Part shown: positions 20,127 to 27,437 of the stretch, one piece after another
How positions within the stretch are numbered: position 1 is the stretch's first letter
Layout of the letters: each line of letters opens with the position of its first letter
Assembly: GCA_963828605.1 (NCBI GenBank)
Contig: CAWHER010000003.1
Location: 194,871 to 258,870, forward strand
Origin: an uncultured Actinomycetota bacterium
Lineage (GTDB): Bacteria; Actinomycetota; Actinomycetes; Mycobacteriales; QHCD01
Reading direction: 5' to 3'
DNA length: 64,000 bases
Made by a program: the position numbers and the translations under genes
Notes under the pieces: model-generated
Told to the model about the DNA's origin: nothing
The model's input: only the letters and a program-made list of their open reading frames with translations
The model's database searches: none

Positions 20127-20172
20127 CCGGCTACCGCGGTACGGATGACCTCACCCGTACTGCGGTAGCCGG
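20127..20172. terminator. 18-bp stem hairpin between convergent genes
   Basis: CCGGCTACCGCGGTACGG-atgacctcac-CCGTACTGCGGTAGCCGG, with one G-U position. The loop contains the HK stop codon (20151-20153), and the hairpin begins 9 nt after the propeller stop. Confidence 0.6.
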
Positions 20173-21170
20173 ATCATGAACCGGCACCCGGGGTCGACGT
20201 TCTCCACCGCGATCTCACCCTGGTGCGCCTCGACCAGGCCCCGGGCGATCGCGAGGCCAAGACCCGCACCACCGTCGAGGGCGGTCTGCGGCGACCGCGC
20301 CGACTCACCCCGGAACGCGACCTCGAAGATCCGCGGCAGGTCGCCGGACGGGATCCCGCCGCAGGCGTCCTGCACCATCAGCCACGCACCGGCGGTATCG
20401 GCACCGGCGGCGACCACCACCGCGCCGTCGGTCGGGGTGTGCCGGATCGCGTTGGCCAGCAGATTGCGGACCACCCGCGATAGTTCGGCGTCGCTGCCGC
20501 GGACCACCGGCCAGGCGGTGCCTTCGGCCCGGATGACGACCCGCTTGGCCTCGGCCGCGGGCGACGTCGACGCGATCGCGTCCGACACCAGGTCGGACAA
20601 CGACACGGCGTCCCACTGCAGGGGCAGCGCCCCGGCCTGGATGCGGGACAGTTCGAACAGATCGTCGACCATCCCTGCCAACCGGTCGGTCTCGCACCGG
20701 ATCCGGCGGTGATACTCGGCGACCTGCACGGGCTCGTCCACCACCCCGTCCTCCAGGGCCTCGGCCATCGCGCGGAGCCCGGCGAGCGGGGTACGCAGGT
20801 CGTGCGACACCCACGCGACCAGCTCGCGCCGGCTCGCCTCGAGCGCCCGCTCCCGCTCCTGTGCCTCGCGCTCCCACATGCTCCGGGTGGCCAGGCGGCG
20901 GCCCAGCAGCAGCGCCGAGCCCAGGCCGACGAGACCGGCGACCGCGACGACCATCAGCACGACCCCGAGATCGTGGTCGGACAGGAACATCGCCGACGCC
21001 GTACCGACGACCCCGGAGACCACCGACAGCACGGCGACCAGCACGACCACGAAGACGTTGGCCGTGACCGACCTGCGCCGGAGCAGCCACAGCGCGACGA
21101 CACCGACGATGACGACCGGGAGGGCGCAGCCCACGGCGATCGCGCCGACCGAGAACGCGTCGGGAATCAT
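20151..21170 (-). CDS. sensor histidine kinase (membrane-embedded sensing type)
   Basis: ATG 21168-21170 overlaps the RR stop (ATGA). There are three to four TM helices with almost no extracytoplasmic loop. The H-box is [15 protein letters not shown]. HATPase motifs are [11 protein letters not shown] and [21 protein letters not shown]. The upstream part of ORF 20151..21668 is out of frame with real coding. Confidence 0.85.
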
Positions 21171-21874
21171 GTCGGCTCCTCGGCGTCGTAGCGGTAGCCG
21201 ACGCCCCAGACGGTCAGGATGCGGGTGGGTTTCGAGGCATCCAGCTCGATCTTCTCCCGGAGCCGGCGCACGTGCACGGTCACCGTCGCATGGTCGCCGA
21301 AGGTCCAGCCCCATACCCGTTCGAACAGCTCGGCCCGGCTGAACGCCGTACCGGGATGGGTGAGCAGGAAGGCCAGCAGGTCGAACTCGCGCGCGGTGAG
21401 GGTCAGTTCGGCTCCGTCGAGCGAGGCGTGGTGCGCTCCGACGTCCACGACCAGCCCCCCGTCGCGCAGCACCATCGCCGTGGGTGGCGGCGGCGCGGAG
21501 GTACGGCGCAGCACCGACCTGACCCGCAGGGCCAGCTCCCGAGGCGAGAACGGCTTGGTCAGGTAGTCGTCGGCGCCCATCTCCAGGCCGAGCACCCGGT
21601 CGGCCTCCTCGCCCAGCGCCGTGAGCATGACGATCGGCACCGGGTGGACGGCCCGCAGGGCCCGGCACACCTCCAGACCGGATAACCCGGGCAGCATCAG
21701 GTCGAGCACCACGAGGTCGGGCGGATCGGCCAGGGCGTGGGCGAGCGCGGCCTCGCCGTCGCTGACGACGTCGACAGCCAGCCGGTCGCGCTCCAGATAG
21801 CGGCGTACGACGTCGCTCACGGTCGGATCGTCGTCGACCACGAGGACCCGCGCCGACGACCGCTCGGTCGTCAC
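21167..21874 (-). CDS. OmpR/PhoB family response regulator
   Basis: Receiver domain ([10 protein letters not shown]...[14 protein letters not shown]...[31 protein letters not shown]) plus a winged-helix output domain ([31 protein letters not shown]...VWGVGYRY). Confidence 0.9.
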
Positions 21875-21893
21875 GGCCGAAGCCTAGGCGCGC

Positions 21894-21925
21894 TTGCCTG
21901 TGACATTGATGTCAGGTTCTACCGT
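21894..21925 (+). promoter_or_regulatory. MerR-type promoter/operator (site S1) upstream of the OYE gene
   Basis: A TTGCCT -35-like hexamer, a 20-nt spacer containing the dyad TGACAT-tg-ATGTCA (21901-21914), and a TACCGT -10-like hexamer. ATG 21932 lies 6 nt after the -10, implying a leaderless mRNA. It is near-identical to site S2 at 25253-25283. Confidence 0.5.
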
Positions 21926-21931
21926 CGCGCC

Positions 21932-23056
21932 ATGGCCGACGACGCGGACTACCGCCACCTTCTCGCCCCCCTCCGGCACCCTGCGCTCCGTGCAGCTCAC
22001 CGGGTGGTCATGGCACCGATGACCAGGTTCCGCGCCGACGACGACGGCGTCCCGCTGCCGAGCGTCGCGCAGTACTACGCCCAGCGGGCCGGCGCCGCCC
22101 TCGTCGTCACCGAGGGGATCTGGCCGAGCACCCTCGGCCAGTCCGACCGGCACATGCCGGGGCTCGCGACCGGGCACCAGGTCAAGGCCTGGGGCGAGGT
22201 GACGGCGGCCGTGCACGCCGAGGGCGGCACGATCTTCGCCCAGCTCATGCACTCCGGGCGCTCCTCGCATCCGGACAACCGGCTGGACGGTTCAGTGCCG
22301 CTGGCGCCGTCGGCCGTCGCGCCGCCGGGGCTGCTGCACGTCGGCGGCACCAAGCGGCCCTATCCGCTGCCCCGCGTCATGTCGCACGACGACATCGCAC
22401 AGGCCGTCGACGACCACGTGCAGGCGGCCCGCAACGCGATGGCCGCGGGTTTCGACGGCGTCGAGTTGCACGGCGCCAACGGGTACCTGATCCACCAGTT
22501 CCTGAGCGACAACACCAACCTGCGCGACGACGAGTACGGCGGTTCGCCCGCCGGCCGCATCGCCTACCCGGTCGAGGTGACGCGCGCCGTAATCGAGGCG
22601 ATCGGGGCGAGTCGGGTCGGCATCCGCCTCTCCCCCGGCAATCCCATCAACGGGCACCTCGAGGCCGACCCGGCCGGTGTGTACCGGCCGCTGGTCGCGG
22701 CGCTCTCCGACCTCGGCCTGCGCTATCTGCACCTCACCGACAACACGCGGTACGCGGCACTCGCGGACCTGCGGCCGTACTTCTCCGGCCTGCTGATCGG
22801 CAACACCGGGTTCGGCCACACCACGACACCCGAGGCGGGTGATGCGCTCGTCCGGGACGGGCTCGCCGACCTGGTGTCGTTCGGCCGCCTCTACATCGCC
22901 AACCCCGACCTGCCGGACCGACTGCGGGACGGGCTGCCGCTCGCCGGCTACGACGAGCGGACGCTCTACACCCAGGCCGACGCCGGCTACATCGACTACC
23001 CGCGGGCATCCGCGCCCGTCTACGTGCGGGAGCCGGCCGTCGCCTGCGCCGGCTAG
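21932..23056 (+). CDS. NADH:flavin oxidoreductase / alkene reductase (Old Yellow Enzyme family)
   Basis: ATG 21932. Family motifs are RVVMAPMTRFRA, QYYAQRAGAALVVTEGIWPS, GVELHGANGYLIHQFLSDNTNLRDDEYGGS and ADLVSFGRLYIANPDLPDRL. Confidence 0.9.
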   Translation: MADDADYRHLLAPLRHPALRAAHRVVMAPMTRFRADDDGVPLPSVAQYYAQRAGAALVVTEGIWPSTLGQSDRHMPGLATGHQVKAWGEVTAAVHAEGGTIFAQLMHSGRSSHPDNRLDGSVPLAPSAVAPPGLLHVGGTKRPYPLPRVMSHDDIAQAVDDHVQAARNAMAAGFDGVELHGANGYLIHQFLSDNTNLRDDEYGGSPAGRIAYPVEVTRAVIEAIGASRVGIRLSPGNPINGHLEADPAGVYRPLVAALSDLGLRYLHLTDNTRYAALADLRPYFSGLLIGNTGFGHTTTPEAGDALVRDGLADLVSFGRLYIANPDLPDRLRDGLPLAGYDERTLYTQADAGYIDYPRASAPVYVREPAVACAG

Positions 23057-23087
23057 CCCGGCGACAGGGGGGCGGCCCACCTGCGCC

Positions 23088-23145
23088 CCATGATCGTGAT
23101 CGGGAAAAGCCGCGAAACGCCGTACGGATCCGATCACGATCATGG
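23088..23145 (+). repeat. 58-bp palindromic intergenic element, copy 3
   Basis: CCATGATCGTGATCGG-gaaaAGCCGCGAAACGCCGTacggat-CCGATCACGATCATGG. It starts 31 nt after the OYE stop codon. Confidence 0.9.
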
Positions 23146-23263
23146 CGGGTCGGGGAGATGCCACGGTCGGGTCGGTGATCTTTGCGTGGACGTGAGGTTA
23201 CGGGAGTCTGAACGGCCGAGCGGAATCATGCGGGCCGGGGCGGTGCTCTGGTACCACGAGTGA

Positions 23264-24427
23264 GTGACTGGATCGAATCTCTTCATCCTGGTGATGGTGG
23301 TCATCGTCGGATTGGGCTTCGACTTCACGAACGGTTTTCATGACTCGGCGAATGCGATGGCGACGTCGATCGCGACCGGCGCCCTGAAGCCGAAGATCGC
23401 GGTCGCCATTTCCGCACTCGCGAATCTGGTCGGGGCATTCCTGTCGCTGGCGGTCGCGGCCACCATCGCCAAGGGCATCGTCACCCAGACCGACGTCACG
23501 ATCACGGTCGTCTTCGCGGGCCTGGCCGGCGGCGTCGCATGGAACGTCACGACGTGGTACCTGGGTATCCCGTCGAGCTCGTCGCACGCCCTGATCGGCG
23601 GGGTGATCGGCGCCACCATCATCCACGCCGGCAGCAGCGCCGTGCTCTGGCACGGGGTCGCGTCGAAGGTATTCATCCCGGCGGTCTTCGCCCCGATCAT
23701 CGCCGGGTTTGTCACCGCGGCTGCGACGTGGCTCGCCTACCGGCTCACCCGCAAGACCAAACGCGGGGTGCGCGCGGCCGGTTTCCGATGGGGGCAGGTC
23801 GGCACCGCGACCCTGGTCTCGCTGGCGCACGGCACCAACGACGCGCAGAAGACCATGGGTGTACTGACCTTGGCCCTGGTCGCCAACGGCAGCATCTCCA
23901 AGTCCGCGACCACACCGGACTGGGTCATCATCGCCTGCGCACTGGCGATCTCGATGGGTACCTACGTCGGTGGTTGGCGGATCATCCGCACCCTGGGCAA
24001 GGGATTGATCGAGATCGAGGCTCCGCAGGGTTTCGCCTCTCAGGCCACGTCGGCCGCAGTCATCCTGTCCTCGACCCATTTCGGTATTCCGCTGTCGACG
24101 ACGCAGGTGTGCAGCGGCTCGGTGGTCGGCGCAGGCCTCGGTCGGGCACAGCCCGTGCGCTGGATCGTGTTCGGGCGGATGGTGGTGACCTGGGTGGTGA
24201 CCCTGCCGGCCGCCGGGGCGGTCGGCGCCCTCACCTACGCCGTCGTCAACGGTATCGGCGGGAACCTGGGCGTGACCTTGATGGCTCTGGCGTTGGCGGC
24301 TTATTGCGCAGGCATCTACGCGCTGTCACGCCGCACTACGGTCAACGCCACGAATGTCAACGACGCCTGGGACGAGAAGGGCGGGACCTCACACGAGCCC
24401 GCCGGCGCCGGGGTGGTGAGTAGCTGA
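23264..24427 (+). CDS. inorganic phosphate transporter, PiT family
   Basis: Signature motifs GFDFTNGFHDSANAMATSI and LAHGTNDAQKTMGV, with a multi-TM profile. The start is GTG. Confidence 0.9.
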   Translation: MTGSNLFILVMVVIVGLGFDFTNGFHDSANAMATSIATGALKPKIAVAISALANLVGAFLSLAVAATIAKGIVTQTDVTITVVFAGLAGGVAWNVTTWYLGIPSSSSHALIGGVIGATIIHAGSSAVLWHGVASKVFIPAVFAPIIAGFVTAAATWLAYRLTRKTKRGVRAAGFRWGQVGTATLVSLAHGTNDAQKTMGVLTLALVANGSISKSATTPDWVIIACALAISMGTYVGGWRIIRTLGKGLIEIEAPQGFASQATSAAVILSSTHFGIPLSTTQVCSGSVVGAGLGRAQPVRWIVFGRMVVTWVVTLPAAGAVGALTYAVVNGIGGNLGVTLMALALAAYCAGIYALSRRTTVNATNVNDAWDEKGGTSHEPAGAGVVSS

Positions 24428-24687
24428 TGGTGCTTGCCGACTCGTACGTCGAATGGGCGTCGATGTGGAAGATCCTGGTGATCAGCATCGCCGCGGGCGC
24501 CGGTCTGGTGACGGTCTATTCGATCGGCCTGCTGGCCCTGTCGGCGTCGGGATACCTCCGGCGCGGCGACACTGAGCAGGCCGCACCGCGGCGCAACGTC
24601 GTGGCGCTGGTCGCGGCCGCCACCTGCCTTCTCGTGGTGGCCGCCGGCGCCGCCTACGGTATCCGGGTGATCTTTACCAAGGGCTAG
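24427..24687 (+). CDS. small two-TM membrane protein, translationally coupled to PiT
   Basis: ATG 24427 overlaps the pit stop (TGATG). 86 aa with two hydrophobic helices (WKILVISIAAGAGLVTVYSIGLLAL and VVALVAAATCLLVVAAGAAYGI). No family recognised. Confidence 0.5.
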   Translation: MVLADSYVEWASMWKILVISIAAGAGLVTVYSIGLLALSASGYLRRGDTEQAAPRRNVVALVAAATCLLVVAAGAAYGIRVIFTKG

Positions 24688-24745
24688 CCGCCCGCTTGTC
24701 CGAACTCACGGTGGCGGTCGACCGACGTGGGTGAGAGGAGTAGTC

Positions 24746-25249
24746 ATGACCAGCTGGCACAACAGCCTGGGTGAGGACGGCCAGCGCCTCACCATTCTCA
24801 GCGTCCTGCCCCGTGCTCCCCTCACCCCCGCAGAAATCCAGGCCGCCGGCGAACTATCCCTCGGTCAGGCGATCGACGAGCTGTTCCGGATCGCGGGCGA
24901 GGACGGAAAAGCGCGCGTCATCACCCTCGATGTGACGTGGCAGGGCGAGGAACCCGTTTTCCTCGCCGAGGAGGAGGTGTCGCTGCGGGATCTGGCCGAT
25001 CGGCTGTACGGGTCCTTCGGTAGCGACGGTCTATCGAGTACCGTGCTACGGGTGCTCGGACCCGACGACGACCCGCTTGGCTTCCTCGCCACGGTCGACG
25101 CGGGCACTGCGGAGGACGACGCCGGTCGGGGCCCGCTGGCTGCACTGCTCCGCTTCCGCGAAGCGGTCCACCGGCTCTTCGGCGGTTCGGCCGACGAGGG
25201 GATCCCGCCGACCGTCCTCAGCCTGCTCTGCGGTCCGACCCGGCGTTGA
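24746..25249 (+). CDS. acidic cytoplasmic hypothetical protein
   Basis: ATG 24746 follows GAGAGGAG. 167 aa, Asp/Glu-rich, no TM segment. Codon usage is consistent with coding. No family recognised. Confidence 0.5.
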   Translation: MTSWHNSLGEDGQRLTILSVLPRAPLTPAEIQAAGELSLGQAIDELFRIAGEDGKARVITLDVTWQGEEPVFLAEEEVSLRDLADRLYGSFGSDGLSSTVLRVLGPDDDPLGFLATVDAGTAEDDAGRGPLAALLRFREAVHRLFGGSADEGIPPTVLSLLCGPTRR

Positions 25250-25252
25250 GCC

Positions 25253-25283
25253 TTGCACCTGACACTATGTCAGGTCCTACCGT
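25253..25283 (+). promoter_or_regulatory. MerR-type promoter/operator (site S2), 15 nt beyond the 3' end of merR
   Basis: TTGCAC, a 19-nt spacer containing the perfect dyad CCTGACA-cta-TGTCAGG (25258-25274), then TACCGT. The right half plus -10 (TGTCAGGTCCTACCGTCGC) matches S1 (TGTCAGGTTCTACCGTCGC) at 18 of 19 positions. Confidence 0.45.
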
Positions 25284-25297
25284 CGCAGCGCGGCCGG

Positions 25298-25666
25298 CTA
25301 GCTCGACGACCCGGTGGGACGGGCGTAGCGGGCCCAGACCTCGTCGAGCACGCCCTGGGCACGTGAGAGGTCGCGCATCATCTCGTCCAGGCGCTGCCGC
25401 TCGCGGCACAGCTCGACCTGCATGGTGCCCGCCAGGTCCTCCCGGTCGCGCTCGAGGTAGCGGAACAGCGCCGCCATCTTCGAGCTGCACAGCCCGGCCG
25501 CGAACAGCTCCTGGATCTCGATGACCCGCTCGACCGCATCGTCGGCGTACTCCCGCTGACCGCCGGCCGATCGGGTGCTGGTGAGGAGACCCTGCTGCTC
25601 GTAGTAGCGCAGCGATCTCCGGCTGACCGCGGTCCGCTCCGAGAGCTCGCCGATCCGGATAGCCAT
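25298..25666 (-). CDS. MerR family transcriptional regulator
   Basis: ATG 25664-25666 follows GAAGGGAG. The N-terminal HTH is MAIRIGELSERTAVSRRSLRYYEQQGLL, followed by a coiled-coil dimerisation helix. It has only two Cys (C60, C87), so it is not the Hg-binding triad type. Confidence 0.85.
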   Translation of the reverse strand: MAIRIGELSERTAVSRRSLRYYEQQGLLTSTRSAGGQREYADDAVERVIEIQELFAAGLCSSKMAALFRYLERDREDLAGTMQVELCRERQRLDEMMRDLSRAQGVLDEVWARYARPTGSSS

Positions 25667-25689
25667 GCCGCTCCCTTCGTCCCCGGAGA

Positions 25690-25815
25690 TCACACGTGCT
25701 TGATGATGCCTCCGTCAATGAGATATTCGGCACCGGTGATGTTGTTCGGCCCGGCGATGAAGGTGATCAGGCGGGCGACCTCGTCCGGGGTGGACAGCCG
25801 GCCGGTCGGCGCACC
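25690..25815 (-). pseudogene. remnant of a short-chain dehydrogenase/reductase (C-terminal ~41 codons only)
   Basis: Manual translation gives GAPTGRLSTPDEVARLITFIAGPNNITGAEYLIDGGIIKHV*, the typical SDR C-terminus. The upstream sequence in the same frame has no SDR similarity and hits a stop at 25891-25893. Confidence 0.55.
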
Positions 25816-25890
25816 GAGGTAAAGGCTCCGGCAACGGCTGAACCGACGTCGACCGTTGCTCCGCTCGGCCGGCCGGGCCGGGCGCAGCGC

Positions 25891-26580
25891 TCACAGTCCC
25901 CAGAAGGGCCCGGAGAGCCCGACGCCGCGTAGGTAGTCGGCGGCCGAGGCCGGGTCCCGGCGGACATAGCCGCTGTCGAGGCGCCCGTCGTACCAGTGGG
26001 CGGCGAGCCGCCACAACGTGCCGAGATCCATCACGTACCCGCGGTCGGCTCCGATCTCCCCGAGCCAGGCGTCGACGCAGGCCTCGGAGCAGAAGAGGCG
26101 CTGGTGGCCGCAGGTGTGCAGGACGTCGTCCCACATGGCTGCGGCGGGGACGAGAAAATGCGCCACCTGTTCACCCTCCGGTGGAGCCGCGCGGGTCACG
26201 GTCCACGCGTGCGGTCGGGCACAGGCGGGACATCGGGTCGCCACCAGAACCTCGGCCGCATCGGGTACCAGGTGCGGCAGTGCGAAGGAGTCCCAGGCGC
26301 AGCCGCCCCACCACAGGGTGCGTGGGCCCATGGCGCTGAACCCCAACGGCACGGCGGAGAACGGATGCGCCAGTACCACCCGCGGTCGGGCGGATCCCGC
26401 ACCGGCCCCGGCCCCGGCCCCGGCTAGGACAAGGTGCCGGTCGCGGGCCAGCCGGTCAAGACCCACCTCGACCTGGTCTGCCGTGGCGCCGAGCAGCCCG
26501 GCGAGCCCTTCGACGTCGGGAACCGCCCCTGTCTCGGCGAACGACCGGTACACCGTGAGGCGCAGATCCTCCACATCCAC
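25891..26580 (-). CDS. alkylmercury lyase (MerB) family-like protein
   Basis: GTG start. It has an N-terminal wHTH-like domain and a WWGGCAWDSFALP motif, matching the MerB Cys-x-x-Asp catalytic context. Further Cys clusters are present (RCPACARP, HTCGHQRLFCSEAC). An internal (GA)5 tract is encoded by a CCGGCC hexanucleotide repeat. Confidence 0.7.
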   Translation of the reverse strand: MDVEDLRLTVYRSFAETGAVPDVEGLAGLLGATADQVEVGLDRLARDRHLVLAGAGAGAGAGSARPRVVLAHPFSAVPLGFSAMGPRTLWWGGCAWDSFALPHLVPDAAEVLVATRCPACARPHAWTVTRAAPPEGEQVAHFLVPAAAMWDDVLHTCGHQRLFCSEACVDAWLGEIGADRGYVMDLGTLWRLAAHWYDGRLDSGYVRRDPASAADYLRGVGLSGPFWGL

Positions 26581-26633
26581 ACGCCGATGATGCCCGATGC
26601 GGGTTCTCGGTCGCCCGGTGGCAACGTGCCCGG

Positions 26634-27437
26634 TCAGTCGAGGAAGCCGGCGAGGGCGGACAGCAGCAGGTCGGTGCGCCTGGTCACCTGCATGTGGGTC
26701 GTGCCGGGAAACACGGCGAGTTGCGCCCCGGGGATGAGCTGCTGCATGAGAGCGGCGTGCTCGACGGTCACGAAGTCGTGGTCCCCCAGCACGAGCAGGG
26801 TCGGTGCCTGAATGCCGGCGAGCTGCTCGTCCGACCAGCCCTCGAGGTCGGCGTTCGAGCTCGACAGGGTGGCGAGGAAGTCGTCGAAATGATCCGGATG
26901 CGGGGACAGCCGCAGGTAGGCGTCGCGGAAATCGGCGAAGTCCTGCTGCGTCGGCAGCCGGGTCGAGGTCGCGTACCTGGCCGGGTCGCTGAGATCCTCA
27001 TGCATCCCATCCGGGTGGACGCTGGCCGAGATCGGCACCACCGACCGGACCCGGGCCGGATGGTTGACGGCGAGTTCGAGCGCCACCGCGCCGCCCATGC
27101 TGTGCCCGAGGACGTCTGCCCTGTCGATACCCAGCTGGTCCAGCAGCGCGACGACGTCCCCGGCCAGCGCCGCCGGGGTGATCGCGCGATCGATATCGGC
27201 GGTGCGGCCGTGTCCCTGCAGTTCCACACCGATGACCAGGTGCCCGGCGGACAGTGCCGGGATGACGCCGGCGAAGTTCAGGTCGATCGTCAACATGCCA
27301 CCGTGCAGCAGGACGAGGGGGCTGCCCTGCCCGTGCAGCTCGTAGTACATGTGCAGGCCGTTCACGTCGGCGTAACCGCTGCATCCGGCGGGCCGGGTGT
27401 CGGCGGTGTCGATGTCCGGGTGCTCGTGAGTCGACAT
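26634..27437 (-). CDS. alpha/beta hydrolase
   Basis: ATG 27435-27437. It has an LVLLHGG oxyanion region, the nucleophile elbow GHSMGG, and a C-terminal HM (His) context (FPGTTHMQV). The ORF-track start at 27623 is too long. Confidence 0.85.
   Translation of the reverse strand: MSTHEHPDIDTADTRPAGCSGYADVNGLHMYYELHGQGSPLVLLHGGMLTIDLNFAGVIPALSAGHLVIGVELQGHGRTADIDRAITPAALAGDVVALLDQLGIDRADVLGHSMGGAVALELAVNHPARVRSVVPISASVHPDGMHEDLSDPARYATSTRLPTQQDFADFRDAYLRLSPHPDHFDDFLATLSSSNADLEGWSDEQLAGIQAPTLLVLGDHDFVTVEHAALMQQLIPGAQLAVFPGTTHMQVTRRTDLLLSALAGFLD

Follow-up and report, generated by a model that had tools for sequence, protein, structure and literature searches.

The 57 nt that separate an old-yellow-enzyme (OYE) gene from a divergent response-regulator gene probably hold a MerR-class operator-promoter (site 1) for a monocistronic, leaderless OYE mRNA, with the wiring of this switch disturbed in the genome under study. 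The window analyzed here is a 64,000-nt stretch of actinobacterial DNA with a composition of 70% G+C, and the features discussed below are collected in Table 1.

Table 1. Features of the window that bear on the OYE promoter and its candidate regulator
Feature	Coordinates	Strand	Basis or remarks
Response regulator, OmpR type	21167-21874	-	PF00072 and PF00486; kinase downstream
Putative -10 hexamer of the response-regulator gene, TAGGCT	21881-21886	-	6 nt before GTG 21874; 7 nt from the OYE -35
Putative -35 hexamer of site 1, TTGCCT	21894-21899	+	Sequence; TTGCCT in 1/70 family units
Candidate operator dyad of site 1, TGACA-TTGA-TGTCA	21901-21914	+	In the 20-nt spacer 21900-21919
Putative -10 hexamer of site 1, TACCGT (TANNNT type)	21920-21925	+	TACCGT is the -10 in 37/70 family units
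OYE gene, predicted leaderless; NemA/XenB/OPR-type ene-reductase	21932-23056	+	PF00724, 2.8e-63; ATG 6 nt after the -10
p172, uncharacterized acidic protein	24731-25249	+	No Pfam/NCBIfam match; orthologues (86-90%) before the unit in G001 and G003
Site 2, probable relic of the ancestral OYE promoter	25253-25283	+	TTGCAC-c-TGACA-cta-TGTCA-ggtcc-TACCGT
MerR-family regulator, 122 aa	25298-25666	-	PF13411/PF00376
SDR C-terminal remnant, ~36 codons (...STPDEVARLITFIAGPNNITGAEYLIDGGIIKHV*)	25690-25800	-	23 nt upstream of merR

The intergenic region extends from position 21875 to 21931, between the response-regulator start (GTG 21874, minus strand) and the OYE ATG at 21932. Within it, the operator dyad forms a perfect 6-2-6 inverted repeat, TGACAT (21901 to 21906), tg, and ATGTCA (21909 to 21914), placed 1 nt 3' of the -35 hexamer and 5 nt 5' of the -10 hexamer, and the -10 is separated from the ATG by the 6 nt cgcgcc. 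The original prediction had described these hexamers, the 20-nt spacer, the dyad, the length of the gap, and the distance to the ATG, and all were found to be correct. The hexamers lie 20 nt apart, as expected for the MerR class (19 to 20 bp, not 16 to 18), with the inverted repeat nested in the spacer. A spacer of 19 to 20 bp that encloses the regulator's dyad is the promoter layout by which MerR regulons are defined (PMC5001606). The classical MerR promoters, namely Pmer of Tn501/Tn21 (MerR), PzntA (ZntR), PcopA (CueR), and PsoxS (SoxR), resemble site 1 in that an over-long spacer of 19 to 20 bp holds the dyad. The spacer of the ZntR promoter is 20 bp. No sigma-70-like promoter with 16- to 18-bp spacing was found in a scan of 21500 to 26700.

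Relatives of the MerR regulator encoded in the window numbered at least 593 in a subfamily census that scanned one genome per species, and the loci of the best 80 of these were examined (Streptomyces, Kribbella, Nocardia, Mycolicibacterium, Nonomuraea, Kutzneria, Lentzea, and others). A unit with the pattern T[TC]Gnnn-n-T[GC]ACA-N4-TGT[GC]A-N5-TAnnnT, no more than 200 nt from the merR start, was directly divergent from merR in 70 of these best 80 loci, which strongly supports the original reading of site 1 as a MerR-type long-spacer promoter of a predicted leaderless OYE gene. In related genomes, the MerR homologues at 46 to 58% identity nearly all had such a divergent unit just upstream of merR. 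The consensus of the 70 units was cTTGAAC-c-TGACA-yyrr-TGTCA-ggTTc-TACCGT. The -35 was TTGAAC in 30 of them, the 20-bp spacer and the 4-nt dyad center were present in every one, and an ATG or GTG lay exactly 6 nt past the -10 in 61; a dyad center of 3 or 5 nt was absent from all 80 loci. A weight matrix trained on the 70 homologous units (53.7 bits of information) gave site 1 a score of 45.3 bits, within the training range of 40.5 to 67.5, and site 1 was the sole matrix match on both strands of the 4.26-Mb assembly, the next best score being 11.6 bits. Such a unique score within the training range is far beyond chance, and site 1 is therefore regarded as a bona fide member of the operator-promoter family. 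The exact site 1 dyad occurred once in the window, and searches of the assembly with the exact pattern, a relaxed regular expression, and the matrix revealed no unit copies beyond sites 1 and 2.

The OYE protein was found to be a full-length member of its family, with 214.7 bits against PF00724 (cutoff, 27) over profile positions 5 to 341 of 342, and it scored 249 against the NemA subfamily profile NF007899, under the cutoff of 403. Its closest solved relatives were N-ethylmaleimide reductases and ene-reductases (~1e-82), and the HGANGYL motif was present in the alignment. Orthologues with 88 to 90% identity were identified in two genomes of the same genus (G001 and G003), where they have the same ATG start and stand behind the corresponding unit. 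The site 1 -10 is too close to the ATG for a Shine-Dalgarno sequence to fit between them. The spacing TANNNT-N6-ATG fits the leaderless transcripts of mycobacteria and Streptomyces. A REP-like hairpin copy (23086 to 23144) follows the OYE stop, so that the OYE transcript is probably monocistronic; the hairpin also sits at a new junction between the two rearranged blocks described below.

Across the family, 67 units had a predicted leaderless target, and 34 of these targets were OYEs with 42 to 60% identity to that of the window. Three further merR-OYE pairs were found in close relatives (L006, L009, and L013). The remainder of the 67 targets included approximately 26 Polysacc_deac_1 proteins of ~285 aa, two MFS_1 transporters, and one protein with a glyoxalase fold. 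The ~285-aa Polysacc_deac_1 protein, the second most common leaderless target, has a conserved start, MTLFDYSPITERP, and was observed in loci L020 to L072 (Kribbella, Mycolicibacterium, Kutzneria, and others). At one locus (L012), an intact SDR gene is the MerR target. A target set of OYEs, CE4 deacetylase-like proteins, an MFS exporter, and a glyoxalase-fold protein suggests that the signal of the subfamily is a reactive electrophile, a quinone, or a xenobiotic.

The subfamily regulators are short (~120 to 125 aa) and share an almost invariant hinge motif, LLPCMRDxDGGP..ATP.LV. Among 81 locus-derived sequences, 79 have its single Cys (LLPC), as do 116 of the 120 best database matches. In a profile alignment to Bacillus megaterium MerR, LLPC falls at the end of alpha4, ~10 residues before the position of the metal-binding Cys79. 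Because LLPC adjoins the hinge, where Cys71 of Haemophilus influenzae NmlR (HiNmlR) lies, a thiol-based switch is plausible for the whole subfamily by analogy, and the conserved Cys is likely to be its sensor. No characterized subfamily member was found in NCBIfam, in the PDB, or in the literature searched, and the database names were all generic; this MerR subfamily of Actinomycetota, with at least 593 relatives, thus appears to be uncharacterized. The literature searched likewise contained nothing on the pairing of a MerR protein with an OYE in actinobacteria, an absence that is not proof.

The regulator encoded in the window is a clear MerR-family protein (53.4 bits against PF13411, cutoff 21.6; 48.8 bits against PF00376, cutoff 28.2) with a coiled-coil dimerization helix. 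An AlphaFold2 (AF2) model (pLDDT, 91.8) shows the MerR fold, with helices at residues 5 to 12 and 16 to 24, a wing, and helices at 44 to 56, 61 to 73, and 76 to 115; the modeled chain ends after the long last helix (alpha5), without a C-terminal sensor region. The best matches of the protein were all subfamily members, and both site 1 and site 2 are of the family type. A PDB sequence search returned only generic MerR-family relatives, and all curated NCBIfam equivalogs were far under their cutoffs. The scores were 39.5 against 150.85 (TIGR02051), 39.6 against 147.4 (TIGR02044), and 37.2 against 167.95 (TIGR02043) for the metal sensors of the Hg(II) MerR, CueR, ZntR, and CadR group, 45.9 against 116.9 for SoxR (TIGR01950), a protein with only two Cys residues being encoded here, and 33.8 against 175 for NmlR (NF041849).

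Within its subfamily, this regulator is an outlier. Its hinge reads LFRYLERDREDLAG (LFRYLERDRED), which is 4 residues shorter than the family motif and carries Tyr in place of the LLPC Cys. The DNA-binding domain was 72% identical to the family consensus, the hinge 20%, and alpha5 52%, against family medians of 88% (minimum, 68%), 75%, and 80%, respectively. The terminal branch was 4.14, compared with a median of 0.21, and the nearest relative among 5.8 billion protein clusters was 55 to 59% identical, the protein itself being a singleton, so it could have either changed its specificity or begun to decay. The reading frame is intact with a coding-type GC3 of 0.89, and the helix-turn-helix (HTH) and wing residues are largely kept. 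Judged from its sequence, it probably still binds site 1. A frameshift or assembly error behind the odd hinge was rejected, as the alignment with merR of G001 stays in frame (9-nt and 3-nt gaps) and the other frames gave no significant match. At the DNA level, the gene looks mosaic: the first ~195 nt are ~74 to 76% identical to the genus-type merR (74% over 199 nt; L004, 1462 to 1839) and include a 20-nt perfect stretch in the DNA-binding part, and divergence is abrupt through the hinge and the dimerization helix.

The original prediction had pointed to two Cys residues, C60 and C87, as the possible basis of a thiol sensor. There are indeed exactly two, 27 residues apart, with C87 inside the modeled dimerization helix and residue 70 at the end of alpha4 just before the hinge. 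Of 81 homologues, only 21 have Cys at position 60, where His is the most common residue, and Cys at position 87 is rare. With neither residue conserved and the hinge Cys missing, the argument for thiol sensing is weak. Thiol sensing by this particular protein is therefore doubtful, and it may sense another signal or none.

Comparison with the genus relatives indicated that regulation of the OYE gene from a distance is not peculiar to the window. The gene order in G001 and G003 is protease-GGT-...-PiT-p86-p172-[unit]-OYE-MR_MLE, with the unit reading TTGCAC-c-TGACACCGATGTCA-ggttt-TAACCT-caccgc-ATG. Each of these genomes has exactly two units, one beside merR and the other before OYE on another contig, and merR, OYE, and unit co-occur in both; searches of G002 (79% complete) turned up neither merR nor OYE nor the unit. 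Since the unit-OYE pair is unlinked to merR in G001 and G003, regulation in trans of OYE by MerR appears, from gene order, to be normal in the genus. The merR-adjacent unit of G001 (L004, 1839 to 1905; contig C2) and G003 (L005; contig C206) reads TTGAAC-c-TCACA-N4-TGTCA-ggttc-TACCGT. No forward gene follows this copy, and its -10 shares bases with the stop codon of an F420-type LLM oxidoreductase gene in convergent orientation, which makes it a further orphan unit directed at the 3' end of a gene. In G001, the order at the genus-type merR locus is LysR-merR-unit-LLM-MarR. In the window's assembly (G000, contig C1:566027-571861), LysR is kept with 86% identity, and 5.8 kb of unrelated genes replace merR, LLM, and MarR. 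A tblastn search of the assembly found no second subfamily MerR, leaving the gene at 25298 to 25666 as the only member. With a marker-based completeness of 65% for the 4.26-Mb assembly, another regulator could have gone unassembled, yet the syntenic genus-type locus was assembled without merR.

A near-copy of the promoter unit 3.3 kb away, next to merR, had been taken in the original prediction as a sign of a small regulon. The copy is real (site 2) and has the appearance of an emptied promoter rather than of a second regulon member. Situated between convergent genes where merR ends, and so outside the usual divergent position, it points antisense into merR and is followed by no start codon. 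Its dyad is a perfect 8-3-8 repeat, with a center of 3 nt in place of 4 and a spacer of 19 nt; restoring 1 nt in the center raised its score on the family matrix to at least 52 bits. Because marker completeness is only 65%, the one-base difference could be an assembly error.

The flanks of the two sites point to a rearrangement. The left flank of site 2 is formed by the 3' end of p172, and in G001 and G003 the orthologous sequence flanks the OYE promoter. Whole-block alignment delimited a block A, from PiT to p172 plus the unit (23161 to 25275), and a block B, the unit plus OYE (21892 to 23042). The relatives (L099 in G001 and L100 in G003) have the order A-B with one shared unit, and the window has B-A with the unit twice, so that a promoter unit of ~26 to 50 bp is duplicated at the swap junctions. 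In a four-way alignment, site 2 retained the ancestral left flank and -35 (TTGCAC-c) and site 1 the OYE side; compared with TTGCAC, the -35 of site 1 is changed at two of six positions, and the following base is G where the ancestral base is C. Site 2 as a recent duplicate of site 1 was rejected on this distribution of flanks. At site 2, homology reaches ~12 to 15 nt into what was the OYE reading frame and breaks off immediately ahead of the merR stop codon; the former place of OYE is now taken, all on the minus strand, by an alpha/beta hydrolase gene, a MerB-like gene, the SDR remnant, and merR. The remnant sits where other genomes carry the divergent operator, and merR has no divergent unit of its own. 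The simplest history suggested by the alignments would be a tandem duplication to A-B-A-B, after which the outermost A and the outermost B were lost. Site 2 is best read as the emptied ancestral OYE promoter, a relic of the block swap. With its 19-bp spacer and its perfect 8-3-8 dyad and -10, it could alternatively be a live promoter that sends an antisense noncoding RNA through merR. Together with a fast-evolving MerR lacking the hinge Cys, this would make a new feedback circuit: by occupying the relic, MerR would tune the antisense RNA made against its own gene, and the circuit would control a leaderless OYE gene whose control region now also serves a leaderless two-component operon. We consider this improbable.

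On the other side of site 1, homology to the response-regulator/histidine-kinase loci of G001 to G003 ends exactly at 21893, placing the junction at 21893/21894. The response-regulator gene occupies the place that merR has in other genomes, merR itself being 3.4 kb off. The arrangement GCGCGCC-TAGGCT/TAAGCT-N6-GTG is conserved upstream of the response-regulator orthologues in G001, G002, and G003, and this gene, too, is apparently leaderless as far as the sequence indicates. A MerR dimer on the OYE dyad would cover approximately -27 to -40 of the response-regulator promoter, so the two divergent promoters, both with predicted leaderless transcripts, may interfere.

The following sequence of events would account for these observations. 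With 20 bp between them, the -35 and -10 hexamers would not be in register for the housekeeping sigma factor, leaving a promoter that is weak on its own. A dimer of the small MerR without a C-terminal sensor region would bind TGACA-N4-TGTCA in the spacer and, upon the signal, under-twist the DNA so that RNA polymerase could open the promoter. Transcription would start at the A of the ATG or a neighboring base, 7 nt past the -10, and translation would proceed without a leader. In this genome, a swap of adjacent blocks has put the unit and OYE beside the two-component operon and left the empty copy at the old place; the genus-type merR locus is gone, and the remaining subfamily MerR retains its DNA-binding domain and has lost its hinge Cys.

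Set against known systems, the regulator shares with classical MerR proteins the N-terminal winged HTH and the long antiparallel coiled-coil helix, and, as in those systems, the regulator gene is divergent from its target in most subfamily genomes. In contrast to them, the protein stops after the dimerization helix and has neither a C-terminal metal loop nor an Fe-S motif, and the targets are predicted to be leaderless and include an ene-reductase rather than a metal transporter. A closer parallel is offered by H. influenzae NmlR and Bacillus subtilis AdhR, described as thiol-dependent MerR proteins "with no sensor region" (PMC5001606). Like these, the subfamily consists of short MerR proteins without a sensor domain, has its Cys at the end of alpha4 by the hinge (compare Cys71 of HiNmlR), and has targets that detoxify reactive carbonyls or electrophiles. 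Unlike in NmlR, however, the NmlR-defining Cys54 is not conserved, the nearest variable position being 60, where His prevails; the dyad of site 1-type units lies inside the spacer and not, as in NmlR promoters, to either side of the -35; and the regulator of the window lacks the hinge Cys altogether. By its score, far below the NF041849 cutoff, it is not a member. Known bacterial OYE regulators are NemR (TetR family; Escherichia coli nemA), YodB (MarR/DUF24; B. subtilis yqjM), and CyeR (ArsR; Corynebacterium glutamicum cye1). They share with the present system the coupling of an electrophile- or thiol-stress regulator to an OYE gene, but they are repressors released from DNA, whereas the architecture found here is that of a MerR-type activator by distortion.

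Three other explanations of site 1 were weighed. The one to be taken most seriously, although we regard it as unlikely, accepts site 1 as genuine and supposes that no working signal-responsive regulator is left: the MerR would be blind to the family signal or would not bind, and OYE would be locked at a low level by the 20-bp spacer or be permanently repressed or activated. It draws on the lost Cys, otherwise so nearly constant among the homologues, and the shortened hinge loop, on the very long branch and singleton status of the protein, on the position of merR behind an SDR remnant without a divergent unit, and on the replacement of the genus-type merR locus. It is opposed by the intact merR frame with its GC3 of 0.89, by a divergent hinge that did not arise from a frameshift, and by the HTH and wing residues that are mostly retained; moreover, the OYE gene and all consensus positions of site 1 are intact, which would be unexpected for a unit that had long been useless.

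Far less credible is an operator for some other factor, such as the neighboring response regulator of the OmpR type or a repressor encoded elsewhere, with the long spacer incidental. The divergent neighbor is indeed a response-regulator gene whose own -10 is 7 nt from the OYE -35, and merR is 3.4 kb away. The junction with that gene is, however, a recent rearrangement, the response-regulator loci of G001 to G003 have neither the unit nor OYE, and 70 of 80 loci, spread over many genera, have the unit physically linked to merR. OmpR-type regulators generally bind direct repeats, which the inverted dyad does not resemble. The least credible explanation is a chance resemblance, with no promoter at site 1 and with OYE expressed either from another promoter that gives an ordinary leader or from an upstream in-frame GTG at 21737. 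Short palindromes do arise by chance, and 0.63 are expected per window when two mismatches are allowed, but site 1 scored 45 bits against a matrix derived from other genomes and was unique in 8.5 Mb of scanned strand. Its position relative to the ATG is conserved in G001 and G003, a start at GTG 21737 would overlap the response-regulator gene on the opposite strand, and solved OYE structures align from about residue 10 of the ATG-started protein. The MerR-class operator-promoter is thus the reading that we prefer for site 1.

By itself, site 1 is an ordinary kind of bacterial switch, and its added value lies in a large, rigid, predicted leaderless MerR regulon of Actinomycetota together with a naturally rearranged variant of it. 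The rigid subfamily promoter, TTGAAC-N-TGACA-N4-TGTCA-N5-TACCGT-N6-ATG, would tie distortion-type activation directly to leaderless translation. With OYE reductases and CE4 deacetylase-like proteins as its main targets, a regulon defined by sequence offers a route to the physiological inducer of actinobacterial OYEs, enzymes of biocatalytic interest, and the unit might be of use as a compact inducible leaderless promoter in Streptomyces or mycobacterial genetics. The window itself can be viewed as a natural experiment in which the operator has been duplicated, the spacing of one dyad has been reduced by one base, and the regulator lacks the conserved Cys.

In the neighboring two-component locus, the longest open reading frame of the histidine kinase (20151 to 21668, minus strand) begins with a GTG, encodes 505 aa, and shares ~500 nt with the response-regulator gene. 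The corresponding extension contains stops in the relatives, so that the true start of the kinase lies much later, near the response-regulator stop.
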